Of a stretch of DNA of 64,000 bases, positions 34,357 to 64,000 are shown one piece after another. The notes beneath the pieces are model-generated. The model did no database searches and was not told where the DNA came from. It saw only the letters and a list, made by a program, of their open reading frames with translations. Numbering within the stretch: position 1 is the first letter of the stretch; each line of letters opens with the position of its first letter. Source of the stretch: a bacterium (lineage in GTDB: Bacteria; Patescibacteriota; Minisyncoccia; UBA6257; UBA9933). The stretch lies in contig JAUYBE010000016.1 of the NCBI GenBank assembly GCA_030693235.1, forward strand, positions 35,917 through 99,916, given 5' to 3'. The translations under genes were made by a program, and so were the position numbers.

Positions 34357-34827
34357 TTAATAGTTTAAAGACGGGTGGTCTTTTGGCAAAGCAGAGCGGA
34401 TTAATTCTTTTATTTCTTTTTGTTTTTCGTCTACCGGTTTTTTAAATTTTAAACCTTTATACTTTGAAACTTTTAAGCCGCCTATGAACTTGAAAATTAA
34501 AGCCGAGACGTATTTTGCCAATTCAACCCCGTCTTTTAATTCTTGAGCGCTGATATAGCCTTGATCAAACGCCACATAAAGTTGGGCGCGGACTTCGCCG
34601 CAGGACGCTTTGGCTATATAGAGAAAATAAAGAATTTCTTCCTTACCTCCTCGCTCAAAACCCTCGGCGATATTTGACATTACCGAGACAGCGGCGCGGC
34701 GGATTTGGTCGATTAAGCCGAAGTCGCGGCTGAATTCCAACTTTCGCGTATAACTATAAATCAATTTAACTAATTCGCGAGATTTTTGCCAGACGAACAA
34801 ATCTTCGAAAGATTTTGCGCTGCTCAT
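34357..34827 (-). CDS. four-helix-bundle protein (23S rRNA intervening-sequence protein family)
   Basis: DLFVWQKSRELV, SNIAEGFERG, KASCGEVRAQLYVA. Flanked on both sides by AAAGTTTAA-type tandem repeats. Confidence 0.75.
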   Translation of the reverse strand: MSSAKSFEDLFVWQKSRELVKLIYSYTRKLEFSRDFGLIDQIRRAAVSVMSNIAEGFERGGKEEILYFLYIAKASCGEVRAQLYVAFDQGYISAQELKDGVELAKYVSALIFKFIGGLKVSKYKGLKFKKPVDEKQKEIKELIRSALPKDHPSLNY

Positions 34828-35112: not shown

Positions 35113-37005
35113 TTATTTAGCAATATAAGCTTGTACGCCTACAGCTGTTGGAAGAGCATATAAGTAGTCAACAACACCTGTTGTACCATTTGGATTTGCT
35201 GTCAACCGAATTCCACTTAATTTGGCATTGTTATAACCATCAGCTGCTGCTACTGTGATTTTGTAACTAACAGTAAATGTATTTGTTGATCCATTTATGA
35301 TCTTAAATACACCGTCTGTATTAACAGAATCAGTAGATGTTATGTCTAGCTGAGTAAATGAATAAACGGTAGATGTTGGTGTTCCATCTAATACTCCTTG
35401 AGCTAACAAAATACCCTGTGCTGCTCCTGCAGCAGCAGTAATGTATTCATTTCGTCCATTAGCTTTTACGCTAAACGAAAGAGTTCCTGTCATTTGCTGA
35501 GGAGTTGCACTACTAATTATGTTTGCAACTAGTGGAGTGCTTGCACTAACGAAAGCAACAGTCGGAGCATATTCGTAGAAGTACATCTTTTCACCTGTAA
35601 CTGGAGCTGGTGTAGCCACAGCTGTGAATGAAGGACCAGTTGTAGCAGTAATTGTAGAAATAGCTGCAGTAATTGCGTCACCATTAACTACAAAACTTTC
35701 AGCAAGATGATTCATCTTTGCATATACTGACAATGTTTTTGTTACATCTTTTGCTAAATCGATATTTAGAAGAGGGAAGGTAAATGTTCCAGCTCCTGTT
35801 ACAGAAGCTAGAATATTTGCACCATCACGAAGCTCAAATGAAGCAACAGCCCCTGAAACAGTAGTGCTAGCACCAACTCTTGCAGCAGTACCAGCTATAG
35901 CTGTAATATTAACTGCTCCAACTTTTGCTTTAAGATCAAAGTCCATCAACTTAACATCAGTCAAAGTTCCAGCAATAGTGTTAAGACCAGAAACTGCTTG
36001 TGTTTTTGGAGAAGATAAACTTAAAGAATTTTCTAATGTACCTGCTGCAGTAACAGCTGTACTTGAAAGATTTATAATACGAGCTGTCATCTTGTAGACA
36101 TCTGAGATACCTGCACCATCAGTTGCTCTTACTGTACTTGTATTAAGTACATTAGTTGAAACACTAGCAGAAGTAAGTTCTGGACGAGTAACATTCAATG
36201 TCAAAATCTTTGTTGTTCCAACTGGAACTACTACATTAAGACCATTGAATTGAAGTTGATACGCAGAACCTGCTGTAACCTCAGTAACGGTTGAAGCTGA
36301 AAGAGGAATAGTTGCAAGAACTGTTGAGCCATCTGACAAAGTAATATTACTTGCAGACAACCATATACGACTGTCGATATCTAACCACATACGAGTAACT
36401 TTCATATCAGAACCTGTAGCCTTGAGCTTTATAGCCATAACATCTTTACTCTCACCTTTTAGAACAGATAAGTTGTCTGAAGGAAGAGCGTCGTAAGTTA
36501 CGGCGAGTGAACCTTCAACTCCGGGAACTACTGGGGTTGCCGGGGTTGCTGGGGTTGCTGGGGTTGCTGGGGTTGCTGCCAAACTGGCAACATACGCCCG
36601 AGATTTTGGACCAAAATATCCGACTGCCGGAGAAACTCCGACTGCCGCTTGATATTTAGCCAAAGCCGCCTTGGTTAATGAACCGAAGGTGGTTGTTTCA
36701 TTGCCCGCGGAACCGGCTCCAGTAGCAGCCACAGCATAACCTTTTGAATTCAAGAATTGCTGTAACGCTTTAACATCGTCTCCTTTTGAACCAAGAGTGA
36801 GGTCTTTAGTAAAGGTATACGATGGAACGACTGGGGCTGTGGTTAATTGCGCTTGCAACAACTGAATCTGAGCCAATAAGGCGTTAATTTGCGCCTGAAT
36901 GTCAGTTTGAGCTGAAGCTGGCAAAACCATAGTGACGCCAGACAATGAAATCGCGACGGCCAATGAAAGACCAATCGTTGAAAACTTTTTAATTGTATTA
37001 CCCAT
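35113..37005 (-). CDS. secreted cell-surface protein with peptidoglycan-binding domain (PG_binding_1) and long Thr/Ala/Ser-rich beta-rich region
   Basis: Signal peptide, coiled-coil (IQAQINALLAQIQLLQAQL), DDVKALQQFLNSKGY...FGSLTKAALAKYQAAVGV, (PAT)4 linker, about 470 aa of low-complexity beta-rich sequence. Codon composition differs visibly from its neighbours. Confidence 0.55.
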   Translation of the reverse strand: MGNTIKKFSTIGLSLAVAISLSGVTMVLPASAQTDIQAQINALLAQIQLLQAQLTTAPVVPSYTFTKDLTLGSKGDDVKALQQFLNSKGYAVAATGAGSAGNETTTFGSLTKAALAKYQAAVGVSPAVGYFGPKSRAYVASLAATPATPATPATPATPVVPGVEGSLAVTYDALPSDNLSVLKGESKDVMAIKLKATGSDMKVTRMWLDIDSRIWLSASNITLSDGSTVLATIPLSASTVTEVTAGSAYQLQFNGLNVVVPVGTTKILTLNVTRPELTSASVSTNVLNTSTVRATDGAGISDVYKMTARIINLSSTAVTAAGTLENSLSLSSPKTQAVSGLNTIAGTLTDVKLMDFDLKAKVGAVNITAIAGTAARVGASTTVSGAVASFELRDGANILASVTGAGTFTFPLLNIDLAKDVTKTLSVYAKMNHLAESFVVNGDAITAAISTITATTGPSFTAVATPAPVTGEKMYFYEYAPTVAFVSASTPLVANIISSATPQQMTGTLSFSVKANGRNEYITAAAGAAQGILLAQGVLDGTPTSTVYSFTQLDITSTDSVNTDGVFKIINGSTNTFTVSYKITVAAADGYNNAKLSGIRLTANPNGTTGVVDYLYALPTAVGVQAYIAK

Positions 37006-37149: not shown

Positions 37150-37215
37150 GGAGTGAGGCGGTGTAGATTAGGTGTTAGGTGATAGGTGTTAGAAAAAAAT
37201 TACCCTAAAAACTAA
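37150..37215. repeat. heptamer-array element, family 4 (GGTGTTA array + CTAAAAAC array)
   Basis: ttaggtgttaggtgataggtgttag-aaaaaaattac-cctaaaaactaaaaactaa. Full copies lie at 49892-49960 and 56683-56750. Confidence 0.55.
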
Positions 37216-37332
37216 AAACTAATAAAGATTCAGCCTCACTTCTGAACCTTTTACAAAATTTTAATCAAAAACACTGTCCTGTCAACTACTTATTAATAAT
37301 GATAACGAATGGATTTAACTTTGGTTTCTCGG

Positions 37333-38160
37333 TTACGGCGACCATTTTGACGCTCCGAAGATAATCATTGCCAGAATCAAAAACATCGTGATGTTTCTTA
37401 AAACTATCCGGCGGTTGATGGTGCCGCTTAAATGATGAACGATAAAATCCTCCAAAATCAGCGCGATGAGCAGCATCAAAGAAGCGGCGTTAAAAGAACG
37501 GAACGGCAAAAAACCAATAACCCAAAGGAATTGAAGAGACAAAAAAGCCGAACCGCTGGCCATTAGATTTACTTTTTGATTTCCGAGCGGAGCTGAGATT
37601 GCTTCGGCTCCGCCTCGCAATGACATAAATAAAAATTCTTTAAAAAGAAAGAAGGTCGCCGAAAATGCCGCCGAAGATTTAACCAGAAACCAAAACGGCT
37701 GCTCAAAATTATTAAAACTGAAAAAATAAACAAAAACCGTTAAAAGCAAAAGACTGTTTAAAAGATAATATAATGGTTCACGCCGGATAAAAATCAAATC
37801 CTTGATTCCCAGGAGAAGGAAGAAGAGGAAGGAGAAGAAAATAACAATGACTATTGACCATTGACTATTAACTATTGACAAATTAACGGCTAATAAAGAA
37901 GCGGCGAGAAGCGTTAAAAAAGAGACGAGAAATTGGCGGGTGTTGAAAAAAGAACGGAAATAGAAATAAAAGGAGACAGTCAAGAACACGATGACTATTG
38001 ACCATTGACTATTGACAAGATAAAGAAGAACGGAAAAAACCGTTGCCTTAAGCGCCAATATTAAGAGTAAGCCCTTGGGGGTCTCTAAAACCGATTTTAA
38101 TTTTTTTAACATTTTTAAACTCGCCTTTAATGATTTTATCTGCCAATTGGTCAAGAACAA
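37333..38160 (-). CDS. hypothetical polytopic membrane protein with internal duplication and family-1 half-element
   Basis: [10 protein letters not shown] occurs twice (DNA 37850-37880 and 37990-38030). [10 protein letters not shown] is encoded by half-palindrome 37596-37624. The annotated start overlaps the clpB 3' end, so the start is uncertain. Confidence 0.35.
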
Positions 38161-40762
38161 GTTTTTGAATCAGTCGTTTGACCGGTCGAGCGCCGTATTC
38201 CGGGTCAAAACCGGCCTCAGCCAAATGCTTTTTCAAAGAATTTTCAAAAACCTGCTTAATGTTTTTCTTAGCCAATCTTTCTTTCACCTGCTCCAATTGA
38301 ATCTCCACGATTTTTTCCATTTCTTTCGCCGTTAAAGAATTAAAAATTATAATCTCGTCCAAGCGATTTAAAAATTCCGGCCGGAAAGTTTCTTTAAGTT
38401 CTGACATTACTTTCTCATGAAAAATTTTAGCCTTGTCGCTCGCGCCTTCTTTTTCTTTATCTGTCGGCGATTCGAATCCAATCCGGGAAATTTCTTTAAA
38501 ATATTCACCGCCGACATTGGAAGTCAGAATAATAACGGCGTTTTTAAAATTAACCAGTTTCCCCTTGCCGTCTGTTAAGCGACCGTTATCCAAAATCTGA
38601 AGCAGGATATTAAAAACTTCCGGATGAGCTTTTTCAATTTCATCAAAAAGAATTAAGCTGTAGGGCCTGTGCCGGACAACTTCGGTTAATTGGCCGCCCT
38701 CTTCGTGACCGACATAGCCTGGCGGCGAACCGATTAGCCGGCTGGTTGAATGCCTTTCCATATACTCGCTCATATCAATGCGAACCAGAGCTTTTTCATC
38801 GTTGAACATAAATTCCGCCAAAGCCCGAGCCAGTTCGGTTTTTCCCACGCCGGTCGGCCCCAAAAACATAAAAGAACCGAGGGGTTTGTCTTCTTCGGAT
38901 AACCCGGCGCGGCCTCGGCGCAACGCGTTGGCAACGGCTTTAATCGCCTCTTCTTGCCCAACCACTCGTTCGCTGAGCACTTCTTCTATTTTAGAAAATT
39001 TTTCCATTTCCGATTCAAGCATTTTTGAAACCGGAATGCCGGTCCATCGGGAAATCACCTCGGCAATATCTTCTTCATAAACCGCTTCTTTGATGAACCG
39101 TTCATCTAACTTTTGACTTTTGACTTTTGACTTTTGACTTTCTCCTGTGTATTTTTTTTCAAACGCCTTAAGCTCTCTTTCGGCCTGCGGCAATTCGCCG
39201 TAAACAATTCTCGCCACCCGTTCCAAACTTCCTTCGCGTTCGGCCATCTCGGCTTGATGGCGCAAGTCCTCAATTTTTTTTCGCAGATTATGAAGATGCT
39301 CAAAAGAAATTTTTTCCGCGTGCCACTTGGCGGAAAGTTCGTCGTTCTCTTCTTTTAATTTCGCCAGTTCTTTTTCAATCGCGGACTTACGCTGACTAAA
39401 CGCAGACTCACGCGGACTTTTTCTGCGTAGTTCCGCATCTTGTTCCGCGTAGTTCTGCGTCTCCGAAAGCAGAGCCTGGCGTTCAATTTCCAAACGGGTG
39501 ATTTCCCGACGTAATTTATCAATTTCCATGGGCAGACTTTCTGTTTCCAATCGCCTGGCCGCCGCGGCTTCGTCAATTAAATCAACCGCTTTGTCCGGCA
39601 AAAAACGGTTGCTGATATAGCGGGCCGAAAGATTAACCGCCGCGATTATCGCTTCATCGCTGATTCTGATGCCGTGATGCATTTCATATTTTTCTTTCAA
39701 GCCGCGCAAAATCGCGATTGAATCTTCAATTGAAGGTTCGTCAACCATAATCGGCGCGAACCGGCGTTCCAAAGCCGCGTCTTTTTCAATATAGCGCTGA
39801 TATTCTCTAATAGTGGTGGCGCCGATTGCCCTAAGTTCGCCGCGCGCCAAAGCCGGCTTCAATAAATTGGAAGCGTCAACCGCGCCTTCGGCGGCGCCGG
39901 CGCCGACAATCATATGAATCTCGTCAATAAAAAGAATATATTTGCCGGCGGCCTGCTGAATTTCTTTTATAAAAGCTTTTAATCGGTCTTCAAATTCGCC
40001 GCGGAATTTGGTGCCGGCAATCAAAGAACCCAAGTCAAGCATAATGATTTCCCGATTTTTCAAAGGCTCGGGAACGTCGCCGGAAATAATTCTTTGCGCC
40101 AAACCTTCAACAACGGCTGTTTTGCCGACGCCGGACTCTCCGATTAAAACCGGATTATTTTTGGTTCGGCGGGACAACACCTGAATCAACCGGCGAAGTT
40201 CTTCATTGCGGCCGATTACCGGGTCAAGTTTTCCGGCTCTCGCCTGTTCGGTTAAATTAACGGCGTATTTTTCCAGAACTTGAAATTTTGATTCCGGCAT
40301 TTCATCGGTAATCCGCATTGAACCTCTAAGACCGGCTAAAATTCTTAAAGCTATTTCCCTGCGCAAGCCGAATTCTTCAAGCAAACGGCTTACTTGCGAA
40401 TCAGATTCCAAAATCGCCAAAAGCAAGTGCTCGCAAGAAATGAATTCGTCTTTTTGATTGGTCGCGATTTTCGCCGCCTTGTCCAGCGCCTTCATTAATT
40501 CCTGGGAAAGATAAAGTTGGGCAAGTCCGCCGCCGCCGACAATTTTCGGCCCCTTTTTTAAAATTTCTTCAACGCGCCGGTTTAACGCTTCCAAATTAAC
40601 GCCGGCCTTGAGAAGAAGCGGCCGCACCAAAGAGCTTTCGTCAATTATCAAAGCCGCCAAAAGATGAACAATTTTAAATTCGCCGTGATTTTCTTTGGCC
40701 GCGATTTCCTGGGCGTTTTGCAACGCCTCCTGAGCTTTAATTGTAAAACGATGAAAATTCAT
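38048..40762 (-). CDS. clpB: ClpB disaggregase (AAA+ chaperone, two NBDs) with repeat-encoded insertions in the M-domain region
   Basis: N-domain, GESGVGKT and GPTGVGKT Walker A motifs, 904 aa. Aa ~433-460 ([20 protein letters not shown]) is encoded by family-3 repeat 39381-39462. Aa ~541-551 ([11 protein letters not shown]) is encoded by the (ttttgac)4 array at 39108-39140. Confidence 0.9.
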
Positions 40763-40830: not shown

Positions 40831-42411
40831 ATGTCAAAACTATACCGTTTTTATGAAATAATTCCCGGCTCTTTGGCTTGGACAACGATTATTTTAATAT
40901 TTCTCCTTTCTTGGCTGGCGCCGGCGCTAACGGCGATTTTTATTATTCTTTTTGACATCTACTGGCTTCTTAAAACAATTTATCTTTCCTTCCATCTCCG
41001 CGCCACCTTTTCAAAAATGAGAGAAAATCTCAAAATTGATTGGTTGGAGAAACTCAAAAAATGTCATTGCGAGCGAAGCGAAGCAATCTCAATAACAAAA
41101 GGATTGCTTCGTCGCTCCGCTCCTCGCAATGACAGTATTGCTTCGGGTAATTCGGGTCGCAATTGGTCGAACGTTTACCACCTCATCATCCTCCCGATGT
41201 ATAAAGAACCGTACGAAGTTGTTAAAGAATCTTTTGAAAGCTTGATTAAAACAAATTATCCGAAAGATAAATTTATCGTGGTTTTGGCGACTGAAGAACA
41301 AGGAGGCGAGCCTGCTCAAGAAACCGCCAAAAAAATCCAGCAAGAATTCGGCAATAAATTTTTTAAATTTTTAATCGCGACTCATCCGGCAAATATAGCC
41401 AACGAGCTTCCGGGCAAAGGATCCAACCAAGCCTGGGCAACTAAAGAGGTGAAAAGATTAATTATTGACCCCTTAAAAATTCCCTATGAAAATATCCTGA
41501 CTTCGGTTTTTGATATTGACACCCAAGTCTTGCCGGATTATTTCAGCCGCCTGACTTATGTTTTTTTAACTTGCGAAAATCCCCAACGCTCCAGCTTCCA
41601 GCCGATTCCTTTTTTCACCAATAATATTTTCCAAGCGCCGGCTTTGGGAAGAGTCATCGCTTTCTCCTGCACTTTTTGGCAAATGATGCAGCAATCCCGT
41701 CCCGAACGCTTAACCACTTTTTCTTCCCATTCGATGCCTTTTAAAGCGCTTGTTGAAATCGGCTTTTGGAATACCGATATCGTTTCAGAAGACTCCCGGA
41801 TTTTTTGGCAATGCTATTTTCATTATAACGCCGACTGGCGGGTTGAACCGCTTTTTTATCCGGTTTCAATGGATGCCAATGTGACGCCGAAATTCTGGCA
41901 AACAATGCTCAATTTATACAAACAACAACGCCGCTGGGGCTGGGGCTGCGAAAATATTCCTTATATGCTGGACGGTTTTAGAAAAAATAAAAAGATCTCT
42001 TTTAGAAAAAAAATTCACTGGGCGTTTAACGCGATTGAAGGATTTCATTCGTGGGCGACCAATGCTTTGATAATTTTCGCTTTGGGCTGGCTGCCTTTAA
42101 TGCTGGGCGGAGCTGATTTTAATTTTACTCTTCTTTCTTATAGCTTGCCTCAAATCACTCACTGGATTATGACTTTGGCGATGTTTGGAATTATCACTTC
42201 GGCGATTTTAAGCGTTATTTTGCTTCCGCCAAAACCCGATTGGTTTAAAAAACGGCATTACTTTTTTTATTTCTTGCAATGGGCATTGATGCCGATTACC
42301 TTGATAATTTTCGGCGCTTTTCCGGGGCTGGAAGCCCAAACCCGCTTAATGCTCGGCGGCAAATTCCGCTTGGGTTTTTGGGTAACGCCGAAACAGAGAC
42401 TTAACTCATAG
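40831..42411 (+). CDS. membrane GT2-family processive glycosyltransferase (QxxRW motif) carrying a family-1 palindromic element in-frame
   Basis: Polytopic. LIILPMYKEPYEV...FIVVLATEE, QQRRWGWG (QxxRW). KCHCERSEAISITKGLLRRSAPRNDSIASG is encoded by element 41063-41147. Confidence 0.55.
   Translation: MSKLYRFYEIIPGSLAWTTIILIFLLSWLAPALTAIFIILFDIYWLLKTIYLSFHLRATFSKMRENLKIDWLEKLKKCHCERSEAISITKGLLRRSAPRNDSIASGNSGRNWSNVYHLIILPMYKEPYEVVKESFESLIKTNYPKDKFIVVLATEEQGGEPAQETAKKIQQEFGNKFFKFLIATHPANIANELPGKGSNQAWATKEVKRLIIDPLKIPYENILTSVFDIDTQVLPDYFSRLTYVFLTCENPQRSSFQPIPFFTNNIFQAPALGRVIAFSCTFWQMMQQSRPERLTTFSSHSMPFKALVEIGFWNTDIVSEDSRIFWQCYFHYNADWRVEPLFYPVSMDANVTPKFWQTMLNLYKQQRRWGWGCENIPYMLDGFRKNKKISFRKKIHWAFNAIEGFHSWATNALIIFALGWLPLMLGGADFNFTLLSYSLPQITHWIMTLAMFGIITSAILSVILLPPKPDWFKKRHYFFYFLQWALMPITLIIFGAFPGLEAQTRLMLGGKFRLGFWVTPKQRLNS
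41063..41147. repeat. palindromic dispersed element, family 1, copy C (simplest full hairpin copy)
   Basis: tgtcattgcgagcgaagcgaagcaatctc - aataacaaaa - ggattgcttcgtcgctccgctcctcgcaatgaca. Confidence 0.75.
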
Positions 42412-42473
42412 TTCATAAGGTTTATAAAGTTATAAAGTTTATAAAGTATAATTTCATAATGATTAAAATGTAT

Positions 42474-43024: not shown

Positions 43025-43369
43025 TTATAAAGTTTTTATAAGTCCGGAAATTAATCGCGAAATTTCTAAGGATAAATTATACATCTCATCAAATTCCTTC
43101 TTTGAAATATAACCTAACTCATCAGCTATATAAAGCATTGACCTGTATTCGCCGCAAGAGCCCTTAGCTATAAAAAGAAAATACCTAAATTCTTTATTTC
43201 CGCCACGTTCAAAACCCTCGGCAATATTATTCATAATCGAAATTACCGCCCTTTGAATTTGATCTCTAAATGAATAATCGCGATTTTTATTAAAATTTTT
43301 ATACGTCCTTAAAACAAGTTCTTTCGCTTTTTGCCAAGAATTTATATCTTCAAATTTCTCTATTTTCAT
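43025..43369 (-). CDS. four-helix-bundle protein (23S rRNA intervening-sequence protein family), second copy
   Basis: INSWQKAKELV, NNIAEGFERG, KGSCGEYRSMLYIA. Confidence 0.7.
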   Translation of the reverse strand: MKIEKFEDINSWQKAKELVLRTYKNFNKNRDYSFRDQIQRAVISIMNNIAEGFERGGNKEFRYFLFIAKGSCGEYRSMLYIADELGYISKKEFDEMYNLSLEISRLISGLIKTL

Positions 43370-43408
43370 AACTTTACAAACTTTATTAACTTTATGAACC
43401 TTTAACTA

Positions 43409-46859: not shown

Positions 46860-47645
46860 CTAATCTTTATTTTTGAAGCCGTCAAGAATTCTTTTTAATT
46901 CTTCGGGCAGTTCGGCCGCTATTTTTATTCGTCTACCCGGGGAAATATTAAATTCCAAAGATTCGGCGTGAAGAAACTGGCGCTTTAAGCCGAATGAATT
47001 TTCTTTCGGTCCGTAAAGCGAATCACCGACAATCGGATAACCGATTGAAGCTAAATGAACTCTAATTTGATGGGTCCGACCGGTTTTTGGCATTACTTTC
47101 AGCAAGCTGAAAGTCGCTGACTGACGCGGACTTAACGCCGACAAACGCGGAATTTCAATATATTTAATGACTCTATATTCTGTAATCGCCTCTTTTTCCA
47201 GCCTGCCCTTCCAAACGGTTCTTTTGATAGCGCCTGATTTAATACTGATTGGTTTTTTAATAACGCCGGTTTTCGGTTCAAGTTTTCCCCAAACCAAAGC
47301 CAGATAAGTTTTTTTTATTTGACTGCCTTGTCTCCCTTCGGGAGATCTCCCGTAGGGAGAAAAAAGATTTTTTAAATATTCAAAATATTTCTGATTGCGC
47401 GCGACCAACAATACGCCGGAGGTATCTTTATCTAAACGATGAACAATGCCCGGCCGAGTTTGAGGTTCATCGCCGACATTTTTAACTTCGGGATATTTTT
47501 CCGATAGCCAATCAACTAAGGTAAAATCAGGTTTTAGGTTTTGGGTTTTAGGTTTTAGATTAATTGAGTGGACCAAGATGCCGGCCGGCTTATAAACCGC
47601 CAAGAAATTTTTGTCTTTGTAAATGACGCGGATTTGATTTTGCAT
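46860..47645 (-). CDS. RluA-family 23S rRNA/tRNA pseudouridine synthase with repeat-encoded insertions
   Basis: HRLDKDTSGVLLVARN catalytic-Asp motif. NLKPKTQNLKP is encoded by heptamer array 47520-47560. LSALSPRQSATFS is encoded by family-3 repeat 47111-47152. Confidence 0.8.
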   Translation of the reverse strand: MQNQIRVIYKDKNFLAVYKPAGILVHSINLKPKTQNLKPDFTLVDWLSEKYPEVKNVGDEPQTRPGIVHRLDKDTSGVLLVARNQKYFEYLKNLFSPYGRSPEGRQGSQIKKTYLALVWGKLEPKTGVIKKPISIKSGAIKRTVWKGRLEKEAITEYRVIKYIEIPRLSALSPRQSATFSLLKVMPKTGRTHQIRVHLASIGYPIVGDSLYGPKENSFGLKRQFLHAESLEFNISPGRRIKIAAELPEELKRILDGFKNKD

Positions 47646-47811: not shown

Positions 47812-48273
47812 TTAAAATCCTATTACTTGAATTTTCTTGTAGGGCGCGAAAAAAGATTTTTTCTTTTCAACTCTGTCTTTTGTCGTAACGACATACAAGA
47901 CATCAAAGCCGTGATAAACAGCAAGAATGAATTGGTCGCCGTTGACATGACAAAGGACAGTGCCAATTTCAATCACGGGAATCACCACACTGGCATGGAC
48001 GCCCAAATCAGCTAAACGATCCTGAATTTCTGCCTGGTTTTTCTCCAATGTGTCCCTTGCCAATTGTTTCTCTTTCAAGTTTGCAGTTTCGCGACCCAGC
48101 GGGCCGAATTCTCTAACAGACAAACCAGCTGTCGCGAATGCTTCATTGATTTGAGTGCCACCTCCCACGCACACAACTACGAAATATTCTTGGCTCAATT
48201 CTTTAATCCAGCGCAATACATCATCGCTAAGCATATCGCCTGACATTTTAATAAAGCAGTTTTTCCGAGACAT
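47812..48273 (-). CDS. hypothetical protein
   Basis: 153 aa. IKMSGDML...VVVCVGGGTQIN faintly resembles an amino-acid-kinase fold N-terminus. Not a confident assignment. Confidence 0.3.
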   Translation of the reverse strand: MSRKNCFIKMSGDMLSDDVLRWIKELSQEYFVVVCVGGGTQINEAFATAGLSVREFGPLGRETANLKEKQLARDTLEKNQAEIQDRLADLGVHASVVIPVIEIGTVLCHVNGDQFILAVYHGFDVLYVVTTKDRVEKKKSFFAPYKKIQVIGF

Positions 48274-49128: not shown

Positions 49129-49890
49129 ATGACTCGCGTTATCGCAATCTGTAATCAAAAAGGCGGCGTTGGAAAAACAACTGCCGCTATAAATTTATCA
49201 ACTTATTTGGCGGTTTTGGGTAAAAAAGTTTTACTGATTGATTTTGACCCACAAGCCAACGCCACCTCGGGACTGGGAATAAATCCCAAAGAATTAAACG
49301 ACACTGTTTATCACGGCATCTTGGGATACGCCTCAATTGAAAATTTAATCAAGAATACGAAAATTTTTAATCACCATTTAATTCCGGCGAATCAGCATTT
49401 AGCCGGCGCTTTGGTGGAATTGGTCAATCTGGACGAGCGGGAATTTTTTCTTAAAAAATTCATAAACCGGCTCCGGCCTGAATACGATTATATTTTTATT
49501 GATTTGCCCCCTTCTTTGAGTTTGTTAACCGTCAATGGTTTAGCCGCCAGCGACGAAGTTTTAATTCCCATTCAATGCGAATATTACGGGCTTGAAGGCT
49601 TAGGCCAACTTTTGGAAACCGTTGACATGATTAACAATAATTTAAACCAAAATATTAAAATTGCCGGAGCGTTATTAACGATGTATGATAAAAGAGAAAA
49701 ATTGTCGCGGGAAGTGGCTTTTGAGGTCAGAAAACATTTTCCGCATTATGTTTTTGAAAATGAAATCCCCCGCTGCGTGTCATTGGCCGAAGCGCCGAGT
49801 TTTGGAAAACCGATTATTTTATATAATCCCGGTTCCAGCGGCGCCATGGCCTATGAAAGACTGGCGAGGGAAATAATTGGACGAGAATAA
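49129..49890 (+). CDS. parA: ParA/Soj chromosome-partitioning ATPase
   Basis: IAICNQKGGVGKTTAAINL deviant Walker A. 253 aa. Confidence 0.85.
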   Translation: MTRVIAICNQKGGVGKTTAAINLSTYLAVLGKKVLLIDFDPQANATSGLGINPKELNDTVYHGILGYASIENLIKNTKIFNHHLIPANQHLAGALVELVNLDEREFFLKKFINRLRPEYDYIFIDLPPSLSLLTVNGLAASDEVLIPIQCEYYGLEGLGQLLETVDMINNNLNQNIKIAGALLTMYDKREKLSREVAFEVRKHFPHYVFENEIPRCVSLAEAPSFGKPIILYNPGSSGAMAYERLAREIIGRE

Positions 49891-49891
49891 A

Positions 49892-49960
49892 GTTTTTAGG
49901 TTTTAGTTTTTAGGTTTTAGTAAATTTCTAACACCTAACACCTAACACCTAACACCTAAA
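49892..49960. repeat. heptamer-array element, family 4, filling the entire parA-parB spacer
   Basis: (tttttagg/ttttag)x4 - taaatttc - (taacacc)x4. The two halves can pair as an imperfect hairpin, with GUUUUAG against CUAACAC. Confidence 0.6.
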
Positions 49961-49963
49961 TAA

Positions 49964-53264: not shown

Positions 53265-54788
53265 TTATTTCACGTAAAATTTCTTTTTCATTTCTTCTTC
53301 TATTCCTGATTCAAATTCTTCTTTCTTTCCCCTGCTAATTTTGGCTAATTTTTCAAGCTCAATATCCGACAACTTCCCTAAATCCTGAATCCTGAATTCT
53401 AAATTCTCCTTCGTATTCTTTTCGGGATTTTCAATAACTTCGTCCAACAAAACGGACAAAATCCGACCCACTCGCGGGCCCGGCTCTATGCCCAAAATTT
53501 TCATCACATCCTCTCCGTTGACTTTCAGCATTTTCGGCGAAATCGGGTCTTGCTTCACTTTTTCAATCATAAAAAGCAAGTGCCGCAGTTTATATGGCAC
53601 GGCTTTGGGCACACCCGAACCGATTCTATCCGCTTCCCTGATTTTTATAAAATCATCGACATTTTCCGGACCGACGCGCGCCAAAAATCTGCGCACTCCG
53701 GCTTCGGAGACTTCGCCGACATTGTAATAAAAAAGGTGATAACGAACCAAATGAATAATTTTTTCCGCCAAATCTTTCGGGAAACGAAGCCTATCTAAAA
53801 TTTCGGCGGCTAATTTTGCGCTGACTATTTCGTGATTGTAAAAAGTGCAATCAAGCCCTTCGCCGACTTTGGTCGCCGGTTTGCCGATATCGTGCAAAAG
53901 CGCCGCCAATCGAATTTCCAAAGAATAATTTTTCTTGGCGGCGTAATCCAGCGCTTTTAAATTATGTTCCCAGACCGTGTAAATATGATGCTTATTCTGG
54001 CCGACGCCGATGCCGTCGCGGAGTTCCGGCGCGATAAACCGCAACAAACCCAAATCTTCCAATAATTGAATTCCTGAAACCGCCTTTTCAGCCATTAAAA
54101 TTTTAATAAACTCATCGCGGATTCTTTCTTTGGCAATCATTTCCAACAAACCGGCTTGTTTTTTGACCGCCACGGCGGTCTTTCCTTGTATTGAAAAATC
54201 CAGTTCCGTCGCAAATCGAACGGCTCGCATCAACCTTAAAGCGTCTTCATTAAAACGATCTTCGGGATTGCCGACGGCTCGAATTATTTTATTTTTAATA
54301 TCATCTTGGCCGTTAAAGGGGTCTACTAATTCAGGTTTTAGGTTTTGGGTGTTAGGTTTTAGAGCGATAGCGTTGATAGTAAAATCCCGTCTGCCTAAAT
54401 CTTCTTCAATTGTTTCGGCGAATTTAATTTCATCGGGGTGGCGCTTGTCAGTATATTTTCCTTCTATTCTGAATGTTGTAATTTCTATGATTTTTAACGA
54501 TTCATTATCAGAGCCGGTCTTAACACCAACGGTGCCGAATTTATTTTCATAAACGGTGGCAGGCTTGTCCGCCGTAGCTCCGGCGAAGGTGGAAAAAATC
54601 TTTTGAATTTCTTCGGGTTTTGCGTCGGTGGCAACATCCCAATCTTTCGGTTCCCGCCCCATTAATAAATCGCGAACGCAGCCGCCAACCAAATAAGCAT
54701 TATAGCCGCTAGCCACTAGTTTATTAGCCACTAAAATAATTTCTTCGGGAATACTTGCCCTGAATTTTACTGAAGGGTTGAAATTCAT
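53265..54788 (-). CDS. cca: CCA tRNA nucleotidyltransferase (Pol beta head + HD domain) with heptamer-array-encoded insertion
   Basis: GGCVRDLLMGREPKDWDVATDAKPEEI, RRDFTINA, HD motif LHDIGKP. ALKPNTQNLKPELV is encoded by array 54332-54366. Confidence 0.8.
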   Translation of the reverse strand: MNFNPSVKFRASIPEEIILVANKLVASGYNAYLVGGCVRDLLMGREPKDWDVATDAKPEEIQKIFSTFAGATADKPATVYENKFGTVGVKTGSDNESLKIIEITTFRIEGKYTDKRHPDEIKFAETIEEDLGRRDFTINAIALKPNTQNLKPELVDPFNGQDDIKNKIIRAVGNPEDRFNEDALRLMRAVRFATELDFSIQGKTAVAVKKQAGLLEMIAKERIRDEFIKILMAEKAVSGIQLLEDLGLLRFIAPELRDGIGVGQNKHHIYTVWEHNLKALDYAAKKNYSLEIRLAALLHDIGKPATKVGEGLDCTFYNHEIVSAKLAAEILDRLRFPKDLAEKIIHLVRYHLFYYNVGEVSEAGVRRFLARVGPENVDDFIKIREADRIGSGVPKAVPYKLRHLLFMIEKVKQDPISPKMLKVNGEDVMKILGIEPGPRVGRILSVLLDEVIENPEKNTKENLEFRIQDLGKLSDIELEKLAKISRGKKEEFESGIEEEMKKKFYVK

Positions 54789-54990: not shown

Positions 54991-55200
54991 ATGATTAAAA
55001 AAACATTAATTTTTATAATTATTTTATTTGCTTTACTTGGCCTGTATTTTATTTATAATTATTTTATTCAGCCGAGTAGTGAAGCGCCGATTGAAATAAA
55101 TAATGGTCAAATTCAAGAAATTCCAATAAGCGACGGCTTTCGAGGACCAAGCGGTTCGCCTTCAATAAAAGGCCCGAGCGGTCCACCGCCGGAAAATTAG
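54991..55200 (+). CDS. small hypothetical secreted/membrane protein with Gly-Pro-rich tail
   Basis: MIKKTLIFIIILFALLGLYFIY signal-anchor, GFRGPSGSPSIKGPSGPPPEN tail. May not be expressed. Confidence 0.3.
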   Translation: MIKKTLIFIIILFALLGLYFIYNYFIQPSSEAPIEINNGQIQEIPISDGFRGPSGSPSIKGPSGPPPEN

Positions 55201-55229
55201 GTGTTAGGTTTTAGTTTTTAGTTTAAATT

Positions 55230-55303
55230 GCGGGTGTAATATAGTGGTAATATACGTGCTTGCCAAGTACGATACGAGGGTTCGATTCCCTTCACCCGCT
55301 CCA
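55230..55303 (+). tRNA. tRNA-Gly (anticodon GCC), CCA encoded
   Basis: gcgggtg...cgtgc-ttGCCaa-gtacg...ggttcgattccc...cacccgc-t-cca. Confidence 0.8.
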
Positions 55304-55878: not shown

Positions 55879-56356
55879 AAATTTATTGGAAAATTTAAAA
55901 GAGCTTCGTCAAATTCAACCCGATTCCAACTATACAACGCGGTCTCGATTTTTAATACTCGCGGAACCGACCGCAACCGAAAATTTACCGGGATTTAAAA
56001 TAACGCAAATTTACAAACCGGCGTTCGCGATAGGATTAATCAGTATCTTTGTTTTAATGGCGCTTGGAGGCATTTATCAAATAATCAAACCGGGCCAAAA
56101 CGATTTAGTGGTCAGAGCCAACGAGATCAACAGCTCTATTCAAGTGAAATTAGATGAAATTAAATATCTTATTGAGAATAATAATCATCTCAACGCGGAA
56201 AACATTCTCAATATTCAAGCTTTGTTGGAAAAAACGACCAATGAGCTCAAAGAAGCTTCAATTTTAAGCCAAGAGAATAAAGATTTGGGAAAATCCTTGG
56301 AAAAAATAAAGTCCGCTCAAGAAATTCTTCTCCAAATCGACGCGATGCTTCAATAA
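55871..56356 (+). CDS. putative membrane-anchored anti-sigma factor
   Basis: 8-nt overlap with the ECF sigma gene. Single TM helix (AFAIGLISIFVLMALGGIY) and an extracytoplasmic coiled region. Assignment is by gene context only. Confidence 0.4.
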   Translation: MNKNLLENLKELRQIQPDSNYTTRSRFLILAEPTATENLPGFKITQIYKPAFAIGLISIFVLMALGGIYQIIKPGQNDLVVRANEINSSIQVKLDEIKYLIENNNHLNAENILNIQALLEKTTNELKEASILSQENKDLGKSLEKIKSAQEILLQIDAMLQ

Positions 56357-56392
56357 AAAATCCCGCCTGAAAAACAAGGCGGGATTTTTTAT
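56357..56392. terminator. bidirectional rho-independent terminator between the anti-sigma gene (+) and HU gene (-)
   Basis: aaaaaatcccgcc-tgaaaaacaa-ggcgggatttttt. Confidence 0.75.
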
Positions 56393-56398
56393 TGAAAT

Positions 56399-56674
56399 TT
56401 ACTTCACCGCGTCTTTAAGCGCTTTGCCTGCTTTAAATTTCGGCTTTATTGAAGCCGCGATTTGAATTTTTTCTCCGGTCTTGGGGTTAATTCCCATCCG
56501 AGCCGCTCTTTTCATCACTTTGAAAGCGCCGAAACCGGTGATCGCCACTTCTTCGCCGCGAGCCAATGTTTTGGTAATTGTATCAAAAAACGCTTCAACG
56601 GTTTCGGCGGCTTGTTTTTTCACTTCTATGCCGGTGGCTTTCATTATTGCCTCGATAAATTCTGCTTTGTTCAT
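56399..56674 (-). CDS. hup: HU-family DNA-binding protein
   Basis: MNKAEFIEAIMKATG...AITGFGAFKVMKRAARMGINPKTGEKIQIAASIKPKFKAGKALKDAV. Confidence 0.85.
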   Translation of the reverse strand: MNKAEFIEAIMKATGIEVKKQAAETVEAFFDTITKTLARGEEVAITGFGAFKVMKRAARMGINPKTGEKIQIAASIKPKFKAGKALKDAVK

Positions 56675-56682
56675 TTAATAAT

Positions 56683-56750
56683 TAGGTGTTAGGTGTTGGG
56701 TGTTGGGTGTTAGAATTTACTAAAACCTAAAAACTATAACCTAAAACCTT
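56683..56750. repeat. heptamer-array element, family 4 (inverse orientation of the parA-parB copy)
   Basis: (aggtgtt/gggtgtt)x4 - agaatttac - taaaacctaaaaactataacctaaaacc. Followed at 56805-56835 by a gtcaa(n) array. Confidence 0.6.
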
Positions 56751-56846: not shown

Positions 56847-58373
56847 CTACCTGGCGTATTCCACCGCCCTGACCTCCCTTATCACATTAACTTTAATCTC
56901 TCCCGGATATTTTAACTCTGATTCTATCTTTGCCGCAATATCCTTGGCTAACTGCAAAGCCCTGAAATCGTCTATTTTTTCCGGTGTAACAAAAATCCTT
57001 AATTCCCGGCCCGCGGAAATCGCGTAAGCGCTCTTAACGCCTTCAAAATTTGTCGCGATTTTTTCCAATTCTCCCAGCCGCTTGAGATAATTTTCAACAG
57101 TATCGCGCCGGGCGCCGGGCCGAGCTCCGGATAAAGCATCTGCCGCCGCCACCACATAAGCTTCTGGCAGAGCAAAAGGATACTCCTCATGATGCGCTTC
57201 CATCGCTTTTATTATCTCTTCCGAAACGCCGTATTTTTTAAGAATTTTTCTGCCTAATTCAACGTGGCTTCCTTGAACTTCGTGGTCTATGGACTTACCG
57301 ATGTCGTGAAGCAAAGCCGCTTTTTTGGCCGTTTCAACATTGAGCCCGAGTTCGGCGGCAATCATTGAAGACAAATAAGCCGTTTCAATTGAATGGATTA
57401 AAACATTCTGGCCATAGCTGAATCTGAAATGAAGACGGCCCAAAAGCTGGACGATTTCTTTCGGCAAATCATAAATGCCTACTTCGTAAGCAGCCGCCTC
57501 GCCAAACTCCATTATTTTTTTACCCAATTCCTGTCTGGCCTCTTCAACCTTTTCTTCGATTTTCGCCGGCTGAATCCGGCCATCTTTAATCAATTTTTGC
57601 AAAGCCATTCTGGCAATCTCCCGTCTTGTCGGATCAAACGAAGAAATAACAATGCTGTCCGGCGCTTCGTCAATTATAAATTCAACGCCGGTGGCCCGCT
57701 CCAAAGCCCTGATATTTCTGCCCTCCCGGCCGATAATTTTTCCTTTCAAATCTTCGTCGCCGAGACTGAAAACGCTGGTTGTTATTTCGGCAATATGGGA
57801 CCGGGCGTAACGCTGAATCGCCGTAGTGATAATTTCAACGGATTGGCGTTCAATTTCTTCTCTCCTTGATTTTTCCAGTTTCTGAAGAGTCGTTGATAGT
57901 TCCTCCTGAAATTTATCCTGAATATTTTTCAAAAGCAAACTTTTGGCTTCGTCCGTTGAAAATCCCGCGACCCGTTCCAATTCACCGATAATTTTTTGTT
58001 TTAATCCTTCAACCTCCGACTTGCCGGTTTTTAATCTTTCAAATTCATCTGTTAATTGAGCGTCTTTTCGTTTCAAATCGGAAGCGGTCGTTTCAATCTG
58101 CTCTTCTTTTTTTAAAAGCCTTTCCTCCAAGCGGGTAAGTTGGGTTTTGCTCTCCCGCTCTTCTTTTTTAACTTCTTCCAAAAGAGCCGTGGATTTTCCC
58201 TGGGCATCAAGAATTATTTCTTTGGATTTTAAATTCGCCTCTTCAATCTGTCTCTTGATTTTTTGCTCGATTGAATTGGCCGCTTTAGCGGCGACAAATT
58301 GCCGGATAAAATAACCGGCGACCAGACCAAGAAACGCTAAAACTCCCCAAAAAATCGGACTTTGATAAAACAT
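56847..58373 (-). CDS. rny: ribonuclease Y
   Basis: N-terminal TM, long coiled coil, KH domain, HD domain (LLHDIGK). 508 aa. Confidence 0.85.
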   Translation of the reverse strand: MFYQSPIFWGVLAFLGLVAGYFIRQFVAAKAANSIEQKIKRQIEEANLKSKEIILDAQGKSTALLEEVKKEERESKTQLTRLEERLLKKEEQIETTASDLKRKDAQLTDEFERLKTGKSEVEGLKQKIIGELERVAGFSTDEAKSLLLKNIQDKFQEELSTTLQKLEKSRREEIERQSVEIITTAIQRYARSHIAEITTSVFSLGDEDLKGKIIGREGRNIRALERATGVEFIIDEAPDSIVISSFDPTRREIARMALQKLIKDGRIQPAKIEEKVEEARQELGKKIMEFGEAAAYEVGIYDLPKEIVQLLGRLHFRFSYGQNVLIHSIETAYLSSMIAAELGLNVETAKKAALLHDIGKSIDHEVQGSHVELGRKILKKYGVSEEIIKAMEAHHEEYPFALPEAYVVAAADALSGARPGARRDTVENYLKRLGELEKIATNFEGVKSAYAISAGRELRIFVTPEKIDDFRALQLAKDIAAKIESELKYPGEIKVNVIREVRAVEYAR

Positions 58374-62853: not shown

Positions 62854-62892
62854 AAATATGCGAGAATTTATTTAGAAATTAGGATTTAGAAA

Positions 62893-63237
62893 TTAGAAAT
62901 TTTGTTTCCCTCTGCCTTCGTATTTTTCGAAAATTGCCCAAAAACTTAAAATTTTATCTCCCTGATTATACACTTTGTGAAAATTGCCCTTAGGAACAAG
63001 CATTAAATCGCCGCTTTTCACTTTAAAAGTTTTCAGCCCAATTTCCATAGTTCCATTACCGTCAATAAACACATAAACTTCGTCGGTATTATCATGTGAA
63101 TGTCCGCCGGTTGATTTATTTTGATAAAGCTCGGTTAGAGAAACATTAAAATTTTCCAAAGCAAGCAAGTCGTAAACCTTGTAGGTATTATTGTCTCGTA
63201 TAAGATTGGCAATTTGTTTATATTCTCTAATATCCAT
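62893..63237 (-). CDS. cupin-domain protein
   Basis: GGHSHDNTDEVYVFIDGNGTMEIGLKTFKVKSGDLMLVPKGNFHKV. Confidence 0.55.
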   Translation of the reverse strand: MDIREYKQIANLIRDNNTYKVYDLLALENFNVSLTELYQNKSTGGHSHDNTDEVYVFIDGNGTMEIGLKTFKVKSGDLMLVPKGNFHKVYNQGDKILSFWAIFEKYEGRGKQNF

Positions 63238-63370
63238 AGATAAATGTCAATAAAAATTATTCTAATCGAATCCCAATAATTAAATAACTAATTATTTTAA
63301 TTTTTATTTGGGGCTTTATTCATTGGGATTTATTTAGGTCAATTAGGTTAATTAGAATAATTAGGTTAAT

Positions 63371-64000
63371 TTACTTAAATATTCTCGCTGTTTTAATATA
63401 CCATTTTTCAATATTTTTGAATCGGTCGCTTGAAAGCGAAATAATCCTTCGACTCTGCTCAGGATCATCAAATCCTTTCAGCGATGTTTTGGCGATATAA
63501 AAATAATCAGGTGAATAAAGAAAGATCGCCGGCATATCCCGAATAATCAACGATTGCAAAGCCGCCAAATCGCGCTCGCGATTCCGTTCGTTCAAATTTT
63601 TCCTGATTGATTCAATCAAGGAATCCGCCGTTTTATTTTCGTAAAGAGCCAGATTGAAGCCGGGGTAAAACCGCTCGGACGAATGCCAAAACGAAGACAG
63701 ATCAGGAACATTGTTGTTCCTGAAAATATTGCCGAAGATGAGCATTTCATAATCCCTGTTTTTGGCAACTTCGTTGCCGATCTCGGCCGTTGAACGGATA
63801 ATCAAATTCAATTTTACGCCGATTTTGGACCAATCTTCTTTTATCAAATTGGCGGTTTCAACTAAAAAAGATATTTGCGGAACGACTAAATTAAATTCTA
63901 ACCGTTCCAGTTCTTTTTTGATTTTTTTCTCCCGAACTCCCCCGTCGTTTAACTGCCAACCGAGATTATCCAAAATTTGATTCGCCTTTTCCAAAGAAAA
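63371..64000 (-). CDS. ABC transporter substrate-binding protein (family 5, peptide/nickel type), C-terminal part; gene continues beyond window end
   Basis: C-terminal SBP_bac_5-like region (…DYEMLIFGN…YPGFNLALYENKTADSL…YSPDYFYIAKTSLKGFD). Open to the window edge. Confidence 0.45.
   Translation of the reverse strand, partial: FSLEKANQILDNLGWQLNDGGVREKKIKKELERLEFNLVVPQISFLVETANLIKEDWSKIGVKLNLIIRSTAEIGNEVAKNRDYEMLIFGNIFRNNNVPDLSSFWHSSERFYPGFNLALYENKTADSLIESIRKNLNERNRERDLAALQSLIIRDMPAIFLYSPDYFYIAKTSLKGFDDPEQSRRIISLSSDRFKNIEKWYIKTARIFK

Follow-up and report, generated by a model that had tools for sequence, protein, structure and literature searches.

What fills the gap between parA and parB in this patescibacterium, and does it have anything to do with chromosome partition? 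In the 64,000-nucleotide stretch of DNA analyzed here (the window), the complete parA-parB spacer, 73 nt from stop to start, is taken up by two opposed arrays of heptamers, as the original prediction had stated. That prediction had also placed similar arrays elsewhere in the window and had offered a structured RNA, a terminator, and a recombination or partition site as possible roles. We conclude that the dispersed dyad family is genuine and that its occurrence is far above chance, and we consider its possible nature below.

The window is 92 % coding and has a GC content of ~38 %. Pfam confirms the products of the genes concerned as ParA, ParB, an RluA-family protein, a CCA-adding enzyme (PolyA_pol/HD), HU, and RNase Y, and the nearest named relatives of the CCA enzyme and RluA belong to Candidatus Wolfebacteria / Patescibacteria. 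Shine-Dalgarno motifs are absent from the window genes. Exact-protein look-ups of the window ParB, HU, and CCA enzyme did not find the encoding contig.

Anatomy of the heptamer dyad

Direct reading of the sequence confirmed three full dyads and three single-arm arrays, or six TTAGGTN-type arrays in the 64 kb (~1 per 10 kb):

49891..49963, + strand: full dyad copy 1, the entire 73-nt parA-parB spacer (parA stop at 49890, parB ATG at 49964), with stops in all six frames
49893-49920: T-arm of copy 1, (KTTTTAG)x4 = TTTTTAG GTTTTAG TTTTTAG GTTTTAG
49921-49927: loop of copy 1, TAAATTT
49928-49959: C-arm of copy 1, (CTAACAC)x4.6, then TAAATAA ahead of the parB ATG
56682..56749, - strand: full dyad copy 2, between rny (56847-58373, -) and the HU gene (56399-56674, -)
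37168..37225, - strand: degenerate dyad copy 3, intergenic
47529..47558, - strand: single-arm array, in frame in an RluA-family gene (46860-47645, -)
54333..54362, - strand: single-arm array, in frame in the CCA-adding enzyme gene, cca (53265-54788, -)
55197..55224, + strand: single-arm array, TTAGGTG TTAGGTT TTAGTTT TTAGTTT, 5 nt upstream of tRNA-Gly (55230-55303, +)

With TTAGGTN as its general unit, the element has the form (TTAGGTN)n - loop - (NACCTAA)n and a length of ~70 bases. The predicted heptamer array was thus borne out, but its unit is better written in this way than as GTTTTAG/CTAACAC. The arms are inverted heptamer arrays; that is, terminal inverted repeats of the MITE type are present. 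Copy 2, correctly predicted to lie in inverse orientation in the HU-rny spacer, reads in the sense of its genes (- strand) as (KTTWTAG)x4, TAAATT, and CTAACAC CCAACAC CCAACAC CTAACAC. Its arm order is that of copy 1, and its right end lies 7 nt ahead of the HU ATG. A 23-nt core, TAGTTTTTAGGTTTTAGTAAATT, with the non-repeat loop included, is common to copies 1 and 2, in which the loops measure 6-7 nt and not the ~9 nt once estimated to separate the arrays. Copy 3 does lie upstream of the surface-protein gene, as had been claimed, but it starts at ~37168, not 37150. Its neighbors are a membrane-protein gene (37333-38160, -) and the gene for this peptidoglycan-binding surface protein (35113-37005, -), and on the + strand it consists of TTAGGTG TTAGGTG ATAGGTG TTAG, a 12-nt loop, and CTAAAAA CTAAAAA CTAATAA.

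The partial arrays announced inside the rluA-like gene and cca are present and in frame. On the coding strand, the rluA array reads CTAAAAC CTAAAAC CCAAAAC CTAAAAC CT and encodes NLKPKTQNLKP; the cca array reads CTAAAAC CTAACAC CCAAAAC CTAAAAC CT and encodes LKPNTQNLKP (listed also as LKPNTQNLKPE). In both genes the third unit is CCAAAAC, not CTAAAAC, and an in-frame TAA is thereby removed. Since a heptamer is not a whole number of codons, each arm holds TAG or TAA in all three frames, and each of the three full window copies has at least two stops per frame in all six frames.

With up to two mismatches allowed, CTAACACCTAACAC has 12 matches in the window versus 0.10 expected, a count that 0 of 100 shuffles attained. 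GTTTTAGGTTTTAG has 21 matches versus 1.49 expected. The window arrays are also reported by TRF. ParA-anchored loci of other bacteria, 772 kb in all, contain a single period-7 array with at least two exact TTAGG/CCTAA cores; heptamer arrays of any type in this set are concentrated in Patescibacteria-like loci. The window contains 41 tandem arrays of period 6-11, 17 of them inside its 7.7 % non-coding DNA. Some arrays flank genes for 23S-IVS proteins (two in the window and one in locus L057), giving a mosaic picture of repeat families. We considered whether dyads may be remnants of array-flanked 23S-IVS-protein cassettes, which seems improbable, as these flanking arrays belong to other families.

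Distribution and orthologous sites

An exact-pattern scan for the dyad in 185,579 species-representative genomes returned 50 loci beyond the window, all in metagenome-assembled genomes (MAGs), in line with the expectation of further copies elsewhere. Carriers within the Patescibacteria are Paceibacterota, Wolfe-, Yanofsky-, and Harrisonbacteria, and "Saccharibacteria." The others are Pyrinomonadaceae, Gemmatimonadetes, Nitrospinota, Omnitrophota, Muribaculaceae, Cytophagales, Gracilimonas, Desulfarculaceae, an alphaproteobacterium, a Pseudomonadales MAG, Geminocystis, Microcoleus, and Cloacimonadota. Multi-copy MAGs include those of Quinella (10 loci) and H51-bin166_1 (6 loci), and related genomes differ sharply in their density of copies. 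The GC content of the 50 loci ranges from 29 to 62 %, and thus the AT-rich heptamers also occur within GC-rich operons. The exact pattern had no match in 2.9 million viral contigs.

All 50 scan dyads are intergenic. They usually span the spacer to within a few nucleotides of either gene, and in several loci the upstream gene stops at a TAG within heptamer 1 or 2. The neighbors are mostly housekeeping genes (SecY, Adk, Map, ribosomal proteins, EF-Tu, and NusG): dyads lie upstream of secY in L008 and L014 and between secY and adk in L001. Those of L027 and L046 are in the pre-16S leader, downstream of the 5' strand of the processing stem and 5-8 nt ahead of the mature 16S 5' end. Copies in L012 and L039 have a GC-rich hairpin inside the loop, followed by TTT. 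In a Pfam survey limited to part of each genome, transposases, RAYTs, and integrases were absent from the top 25 families listed for 150 flanking and 52 window ORFs; a transposase-free housekeeping neighborhood is as expected of non-autonomous elements.

The 24 dyads found in scan loci all have the TTAGG arm 5' and the CCTAA arm 3' (on either strand). The paired-array architecture that had been claimed is supported. Among Patescibacteria copies between co-directional genes, the T-arm comes first on the sense strand in 11 cases versus 2, and in other phyla in 4 versus 8. It also comes first in 3/3 full window copies, the genes of which lie on opposite strands. Because the sense-strand order is constant on both gene strands and GC skew is monotonic across the three copies, orientation tracks transcription, not replication. 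Convergent-gene spacers hold only 2 of the 28 resolved copies and divergent spacers hold 1. In most of the co-directional Patescibacteria cases, the stop codon falls -14 to +13 nt from the left edge of the dyad, with the start codon at -2 to +9 nt relative to its right edge.

At the same site, relatives differ in whether a repeat is present, in its orientation, and in the family to which it belongs, which speaks for insertion. In the closest relative, L051 (ParA 81 % identical), the parA-parB spacer contains TCTCCC..GGGAGA hairpins, a family also found inside the window rluA gene. The two genes overlap in L052, so that the spacer is absent; one (CCTAANA)n arm stands ahead of the parB ATG in L053, and (ATAGTAA)n and a 23S-IVS-protein gene are found in L057. 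The same spacer of L036, a Yanofskybacteria MAG, does contain the dyad, inverted relative to transcription. At the rny-HU spacer of the syntenic locus L132, a different palindrome follows a conserved CAAAGGTCGAG motif, and there is no array in the tRNA region of this locus.

L008 and L014 are 69-73 % identical in coding DNA, and their dyads upstream of secY share 54/56 arm positions and differ in their loops; their secY-adk spacers hold unrelated elements, each different. The 16S-leader dyads of L027 and L046 occupy the same site in opposite orientation. Single CCTAA-type arrays adjoin start codons in L053 and L014. Six Wolfebacteria-like loci, ~60 kb in total, have no TTAGG-type array outside cca and rluA. 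The dyads are flanked by AT-rich stop/start contexts with no clear target-site duplication, and the available empty sites are divergent.

Comparable variation is seen inside proteins. Across 50 orthologues of the CCA enzyme, the loop that follows RRDFTINAIA is short in some and filled with one of many repeat-coded inserts in others, and the heptamer-coded KPNTQNLKPE is common to 5 of the 50. The RluA loop after KPAGxLVH likewise has many different repeat-coded inserts or none in 59 orthologues; that of L051 carries a different insert and that of L136 a further insertion nested within the array. The two loops are insertion hot spots, and the arrays display the in-frame insertion at permissive protein sites that is typical of Rickettsia palindromic elements (RPE). 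The cca array is near-identical in DNA across four lineages with 75-79 % protein identity, with codon identity of 9-10/10 compared to 56-60 % elsewhere. This synonymous conservation is in excess of the amino-acid-specific expectation (P ~1e-3 per pair). The rluA array has decayed in one lineage, to 7/10.

Pairing and primary sequence

The arms were predicted to pair as an imperfect hairpin, which holds for copies 1 and 2. As RNA, copy 1 folds at -17.5 kcal/mol (+ strand, z -3.1) and copy 2 at -19.5 kcal/mol (- strand, z -3.4); over either strand, the imperfect hairpins of these copies range from -17.5 to -24.7 kcal/mol, with z of -3.1 to -3.5. It does not hold for copy 3, in which the fold is no stronger than those of shuffles (z ~0). 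GTTTTAG and CTAACAC are inexact complements, with one U.C or G.A mismatch per unit. The modeled hairpin potential is genuine yet moderate.

Twelve copies with the 4+4 layout, drawn from nine or more Patescibacteria genomes, could be aligned. Their arms are almost invariant; their AT-rich loops and their flanks vary. All copies agree at 18 of the 30 stem positions, and a 14-nt super-period is visible in that unit 3 never starts with G. No covarying or compensatory pair was found; the substitutions present break pairs, and the mismatch is kept at four positions in 12/12 copies and at a fifth in 11/12. Because arms and mismatches are conserved without covariation, constraint, or recency of spread, concerns the primary sequence, not pairing. 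At the gathering score, the Rfam matches in the window are tRNAs only, and relaxing the threshold to E up to 5 gave only weak chance matches. The suggestion of a discrete structured RNA is therefore not supported, in view of the missing Rfam match, the zero compensatory changes, and the conserved mismatches of the 12 copies.

A probable insertion element or a host signal?

We consider, with middling confidence, that the dyad is a spacer-filling insertion element of the REP, RPE, or MITE kind that is recognized by its sequence. Copies arrive at, or persist only at, permissive places: intercistronic spacers, which they occupy from stop to start codon, leaders of RNA genes, and surface loops of proteins. 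Because TAG or TAA occurs in all three frames of each arm, a full copy can sit at the end of a gene, and it often supplies the upstream stop codon. Within genes, only a single arm survives, and only once the in-frame TAA of every third unit has changed to CAA. Propagation would be by a putative sequence-specific trans-acting activity, which we infer because the arms and their periodic mismatches are conserved across genomes and phyla and the loop and flanks are not. Once in place, the dyad would probably be co-transcribed with its neighbors and fold as an imperfect hairpin, which at most may modulate mRNA processing, stability, or translational coupling. It would also alternate or compete with other repeat families at permissive sites. 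The dyad probably neither terminates transcription nor relates to ParB.

Several observations count against an insertion element. No mobilizing enzyme, parent element, or target-site duplication was found in the DNA examined, and the zero matches in viral contigs leave no horizontal vector evident. Tandem heptamers can grow by slippage, and part of the variation may be local. The sense-strand bias in Patescibacteria (11 versus 2) suggests selection or function at the RNA level, and the cross-phylum conservation of the heptamers and the synonymous excess in cca also fit a host function.

A host-functional intercistronic RNA, for translational coupling independent of Shine-Dalgarno sites or for binding of S1/Csp/CsrA-type proteins, seems unlikely to us, and the stop-hairpin-start geometry, along with the bias in orientation, leads us to keep it as a serious rival. 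In the coupling scenario, the G/U-rich arm from the upstream stop would pair with the G-free A/C-rich arm near the next start; a ribosome that terminates there would open the foot of the hairpin, leaving a CA-rich leader free of structure and accessible. The tightness of this geometry in most co-directional Patescibacteria cases, the lack of Shine-Dalgarno motifs in window genes, the start-adjoining CCTAA-type arrays of L053 and L014, and the conservation of primary sequence across genomes all agree with such a role, which has earlier been proposed for start-codon heptamers (PMC4679880; bioRxiv 10.1101/2022.06.06.494920). However, orthologous spacers of close relatives lack the dyad or hold unrelated repeats, orientation is reversed in non-Patescibacteria (4 versus 8) and at orthologous sites, covariation is absent, and copies also precede 16S rRNA and a tRNA, neither of which is translated. 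Such geometry would, moreover, result from whatever is inserted into a very short spacer. It is quite improbable that the arrays are ordinary microsatellites, formed by in situ slippage in a repair-poor, repeat-rich genome, with pairs as by-products of slippage or template switching and neither mobility nor function. The abundance of period 6-11 arrays in the window, especially in its non-coding DNA, would suit this explanation, as would the unit numbers and variants that differ among copies. Heptamer simple sequence repeats (SSRs) are over-represented in bacteria, and slippage has been proposed as their origin (Mrazek 2007, to the extent that it is reported in PMC4692102 and PMC4679880). Yet the same heptamers, arm order, and mismatches recur in many phyla, at 29-62 % GC, which independent slippage cannot give; nor does it account for the non-repeat loop and the 14-nt super-period that copies have in common, both inside one Patescibacteria genome and from one to another; and the 4+4 unit architecture is regular, not random in length.

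We judge it very unlikely that the dyad is a DUS/USS-like uptake motif, in which the competence machinery of these DNA-scavenging bacteria would prefer DNA with TTAGG arrays and spread them by molecular drive, often as intergenic inverted pairs and now and then within genes. A motif of this kind would account for the conserved primary sequence with no covariation, the inverted pairs between genes, the synonymous excess of an intragenic copy, and the occurrence in related lineages, and dprA and PilO-type genes are present in related loci and a ComM/Mg-chelatase-type gene in the window. Against this stand the low density (~1 per 10 kb in the window and none in ~60 kb of close relatives), the tandem arrays, which are unlike known uptake sequences, the decay of the rluA copy in one lineage, and the range of unrelated phyla, including cyanobacteria and Firmicutes, which does not suit one competence system. 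An intrinsic terminator or attenuator hairpin, as originally suggested, is highly improbable. The dyad can form a hairpin of -17 to -25 kcal/mol downstream of genes, and a few copies in other genomes have the GC-rich loop hairpin, followed by TTT in L012 and L039. Its stem, however, is AT-rich and mismatched and no U-tract follows; a terminator scan does not call the dyad and calls a canonical bidirectional terminator at 56349-56396 instead. Only 2/28 resolved copies lie between convergent genes, and others lie between co-transcribed essential genes (secY in L008 and L014, secY-adk in L001) or 5-8 nt upstream of mature 16S rRNA. Termination would be lethal within ribosomal-protein/secY operons and 5' of 16S rRNA, and on all these grounds we reject a terminator.

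The least probable reading, to the point of being nearly negligible, is a site for ParB binding or partition or for site-specific recombination (attC/dif-like). The parA-parB spacer is filled exactly, and L036 has a dyad there too. The heptamer GTTAGGT fits the integron core GTTRRRY, and ACCTAAC fits RYYYAAC, which would favor recombination. On the other hand, no parS-like sequence is present in the window: the 16-bp palindrome TGTTNCACGTGAAACA has a best match there with 3 mismatches, elsewhere and at chance level, and the earlier remark that no canonical parS could be seen was correct. The other five window copies are unrelated to par genes, the closest relatives have no dyad in the parA-parB spacer, and the L036 copy is inverted. 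An integron attC was rejected, as the core-like heptamers are in the reverse order in all 24 dyads found in scan loci, the neighbors are housekeeping genes, and no integrase is nearby. The proposed partition site fails on the same grounds of absent parS and of a dyad that is not conserved in relatives' spacers.

The dyad family has analogues among known repeats. Cyanobacterial STRR heptamers, described by Mazel in 1990, reportedly form dispersed intergenic arrays. The TTAGGTT/TTAGGTG unit differs from TAACTGA, CCCCAGT, GGGAATC, and TTTTGAA. Its closest published analogue is the TAACTGA repeat of marine Beggiatoaceae, Cyanobacteria, and Bacteroidetes, which occurs in 2-6 or more tandem copies in intergenic DNA, typically a few nucleotides from a start codon, where Shine-Dalgarno sites are rare (PMC4679880). 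That repeat overlaps upstream stop codons, has stops in all frames in one orientation, and is occasionally in frame at permissive places in proteins; its patchy distribution across phyla was attributed to unexplained horizontal transfer, and S1, Csp, and CsrA were proposed as its binders (PMC4679880). TTAGGTN is similarly tandem, intergenic, near start codons, patchy across phyla, and occasionally in frame. It differs in its unit, its stops in both orientations, its mainly Patescibacteria hosts, and its opposed-array dyad, whereas an indirect repeat of TAACTGA was found only once (PMC4679880). The GGGAATC (Xanthomonas) and GGGGAYT (Nostoc) heptamers are dispersed, intergenic, and sometimes in inverted pairs, with arrays that vary in length and sequence between close relatives at the same site; over-representation of heptamer SSRs in bacteria is noted there without explanation (PMC4692102). 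Those heptamers are G-quadruplex-prone and genus-restricted (PMC4692102), in contrast to the AT-rich, cross-phylum TTAGGTN, which has GG only and forms regular 4+4 dyads that keep one type of loop. A Nostoc preprint describes TTTTGAA heptamers near start codons with regulatory effects.

The comparison extends to mobile elements. REP/BIME and REPIN sequences are short imperfect palindromes, extragenic and in high copy, mostly between co-directional genes of operons; they are mobilized by RAYT transposases, and their cross-phylum sequence tag reflects a conserved trans-acting enzyme (PMC3116915, PMC3733652). The TTAGGTN dyad is also an imperfect palindrome, extragenic, in many copies, homogeneous within a genome, and conserved in a short sequence across phyla. 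Unlike REP/REPIN, it has no GTAG or CGTC head (it starts with (K)TTTTAG/TTAGG), its arms are tandem heptamers, and the ORFs surveyed showed no RAYT gene. RPE were reportedly described by Ogata et al. in 2000 as elements of 100-150 bp that insert whole. Our family resembles them in its in-frame insertion in surface loops of essential proteins as well as intergenic DNA of a reduced genome, but the sequences are not known to be related, the hosts and the unit structure differ, and only a single 30-nt arm, with stop-codon repair, is found in genes. Like MITEs, the dyad would be non-autonomous, with inverted arms, variable presence at orthologous sites, and lineage-specific proliferation; its arms are internally repetitive, and neither a target-site duplication nor a parent IS was detectable in the AT-rich flanks and divergent empty sites available. 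A literature search by exact array strings returned vertebrate studies only and nothing bacterial, and we found no paper on palindromic repeat insertions in Patescibacteria. The TTAGGTN family is distinct among heptamer repeats in its dyad architecture, its broad distribution, and its stop-repaired copies inside essential enzymes.

On a more speculative note, and one that we think unlikely to prove correct, the dyad may serve in cis as the target of a sequence-specific factor that very distant bacteria have in common. This factor could be an undescribed mobilization system for heptamer-array hairpins or a conserved RNA/DNA-binding activity. In the former case, an enzyme for nicking or strand transfer at TTAG, for example, could explain the gain and loss of 7-nt units; in the latter, the dyad could be a signal for Shine-Dalgarno-independent intercistronic coupling or processing. 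If such a factor were real, the invariant arms and periodic mismatches would be a recognition code and not a structural accident.

The family offers an unusually clean handle on the unexplained heptamer families, given its fixed dyad, its hosts of 29-62 % GC, its alternation with other repeat families, and its visible stop repair. Insertions of such repeats affect gene calling, protein-family alignments, and MAG assembly. The ultra-small genomes of Patescibacteria, usually called streamlined, are riddled with repeats in spacers, RNA leaders, and protein loops, and if a trans-acting partner of the TTAGGTN dyad exists, it would represent a new mobilization or regulatory system.

Repeat families and tandem arrays of the window

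The window holds 41 tandem arrays with a period of 6 to 11. Besides the (TTAGGTN)n-loop-(NACCTAA)n dyad, a second dyad-array family has a 10-nt unit, with (CGCAGACTTA)n followed by (TTCCGCGTAG)n, and is found in frame in four genes. These are, in the order of the list, an ORF, a membrane-protein gene, the middle domain of ClpB (where it contributes a 19-residue stretch of peptide) and the RluA-family gene:

13525-13562, 10-nt-unit dyad array
34074-34157, 10-nt-unit dyad array
39380-39462, 10-nt-unit dyad array
47115-47151, 10-nt-unit dyad array

Further repeat families of the window also contain TTAG:

154-259, TTAG-type repeats
53377-53404, TTAG-type repeats
62869-62901, TTAG-type repeats
63330-63371, TTAG-type repeats

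At the left end of the window, 9-mers form the dyad (CCTAATTAN)n ... (TTAGAATAA)n, and the right end has a (TTAGGTYAA)n array; TTAGAAA/TTAGGAT heptamers are also among these repeats. The 3' part of cca, the CCA-adding enzyme gene, holds (CCTAAAT)4, whose in-frame unit shows a TAG-to-CAG change.

Non-triplet tandem repeats, with a period of 7 or 8, are likewise contained in ORFs of the window:

29413-29449, intra-ORF array
29553-29600, intra-ORF array
37848-37879, intra-ORF array
37992-38016, intra-ORF array
39109-39141, intra-ORF array

The peptide NSQWSIVIV is encoded twice in a membrane protein by (TGACTAT)n, and a ClpB peptide of 11 residues is encoded by (ACTTTTG)n. A glycosyltransferase-like ORF (40831-42411) contains the inverted repeat AAAAATGTCATTGCGAG ... 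CTCGCAATGACAGTATT at 41057-41139, from which the peptide CHCERSEAIS...LLRRSAPRND derives, a peptide signature of many environmental genomes.

Gene boundaries and 23S_rRNA_IVP genes

Among some 28 genes in the 32-64 kb part of the window, hardly any has a Shine-Dalgarno motif at its start, and AAGGAGG is found only before ORF 47812-48273; the regions upstream of these starts are A/T-rich and often made of tandem repeats. A canonical bidirectional intrinsic terminator, an example of the real terminators of this genome, separates the convergent anti-sigma-like gene and HU:

56349-56396, perfect 20-bp inverted repeat with A and T runs alongside

Tandem arrays of 8- and 9-nt units border both 23S_rRNA_IVP (four-helix-bundle) genes of the window:

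34357-34827, 23S_rRNA_IVP gene
43025-43369, 23S_rRNA_IVP gene

Two arrays, at 42410-42451 and 43369-43404, are inverted to each other and bracket a 0.9-kb two-gene segment. In comparison locus L057, a 23S_rRNA_IVP gene with an internal stop (2866-3240) lies between parA and parB, preceded in that interval by an (ATAGTAA)n array.

Dyads and protein-coding inserts in and beyond the window

Two comparison loci carry the dyad in the pre-16S rRNA leader, with a processing-stem strand (TTTTTTAGTTGTCCCAA) on one side and the mature 16S 5' end on the other; these orthologous dyads have opposite orientations:

L027 7284-7366, pre-16S dyad
L046 1111-1182, pre-16S dyad

An identical dyad with identical flanks occurs in L012 and L039, from MAGs labelled Gammaproteobacteria and Cloacimonadota, accompanied by a YhcG/DUF1016 PD-(D/E)XK nuclease gene that has heptamer arrays on both sides. 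This reflects either a single organism placed in two bins or a transfer of the segment. In a related Wolfebacteria MAG (L136 1-1591), the GyrA gene has an intein bearing a LAGLIDADG domain (precomputed Pfam hits).

Within the window's rluA, the TCTCCCTTCGGGAGA / TCTCCCGTAGGGAGA palindrome pair at 47328-47363 is in frame and encodes SPYGRSPEGRQ. In L051, the closest relative, the spacer between parA and parB is filled by repeats of this family (10504-10545). Across Wolfebacteria-like genomes, the CCA-adding enzyme loop after RRDFTINAIA (window gene 53265-54788) and likewise the RluA loop after KPAGxLVH (window gene 46860-47645) are insertion hot spots (alignments A1 and A5 of CCA-enzyme and RluA orthologues). 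Dozens of orthologues carry differing repeat-coded peptides in these loops, including LEIGNWKLEI, CDTNIRMHANDTN, RIKNAELRI, and a further peptide of 10 residues, and part of the inserts are nested.
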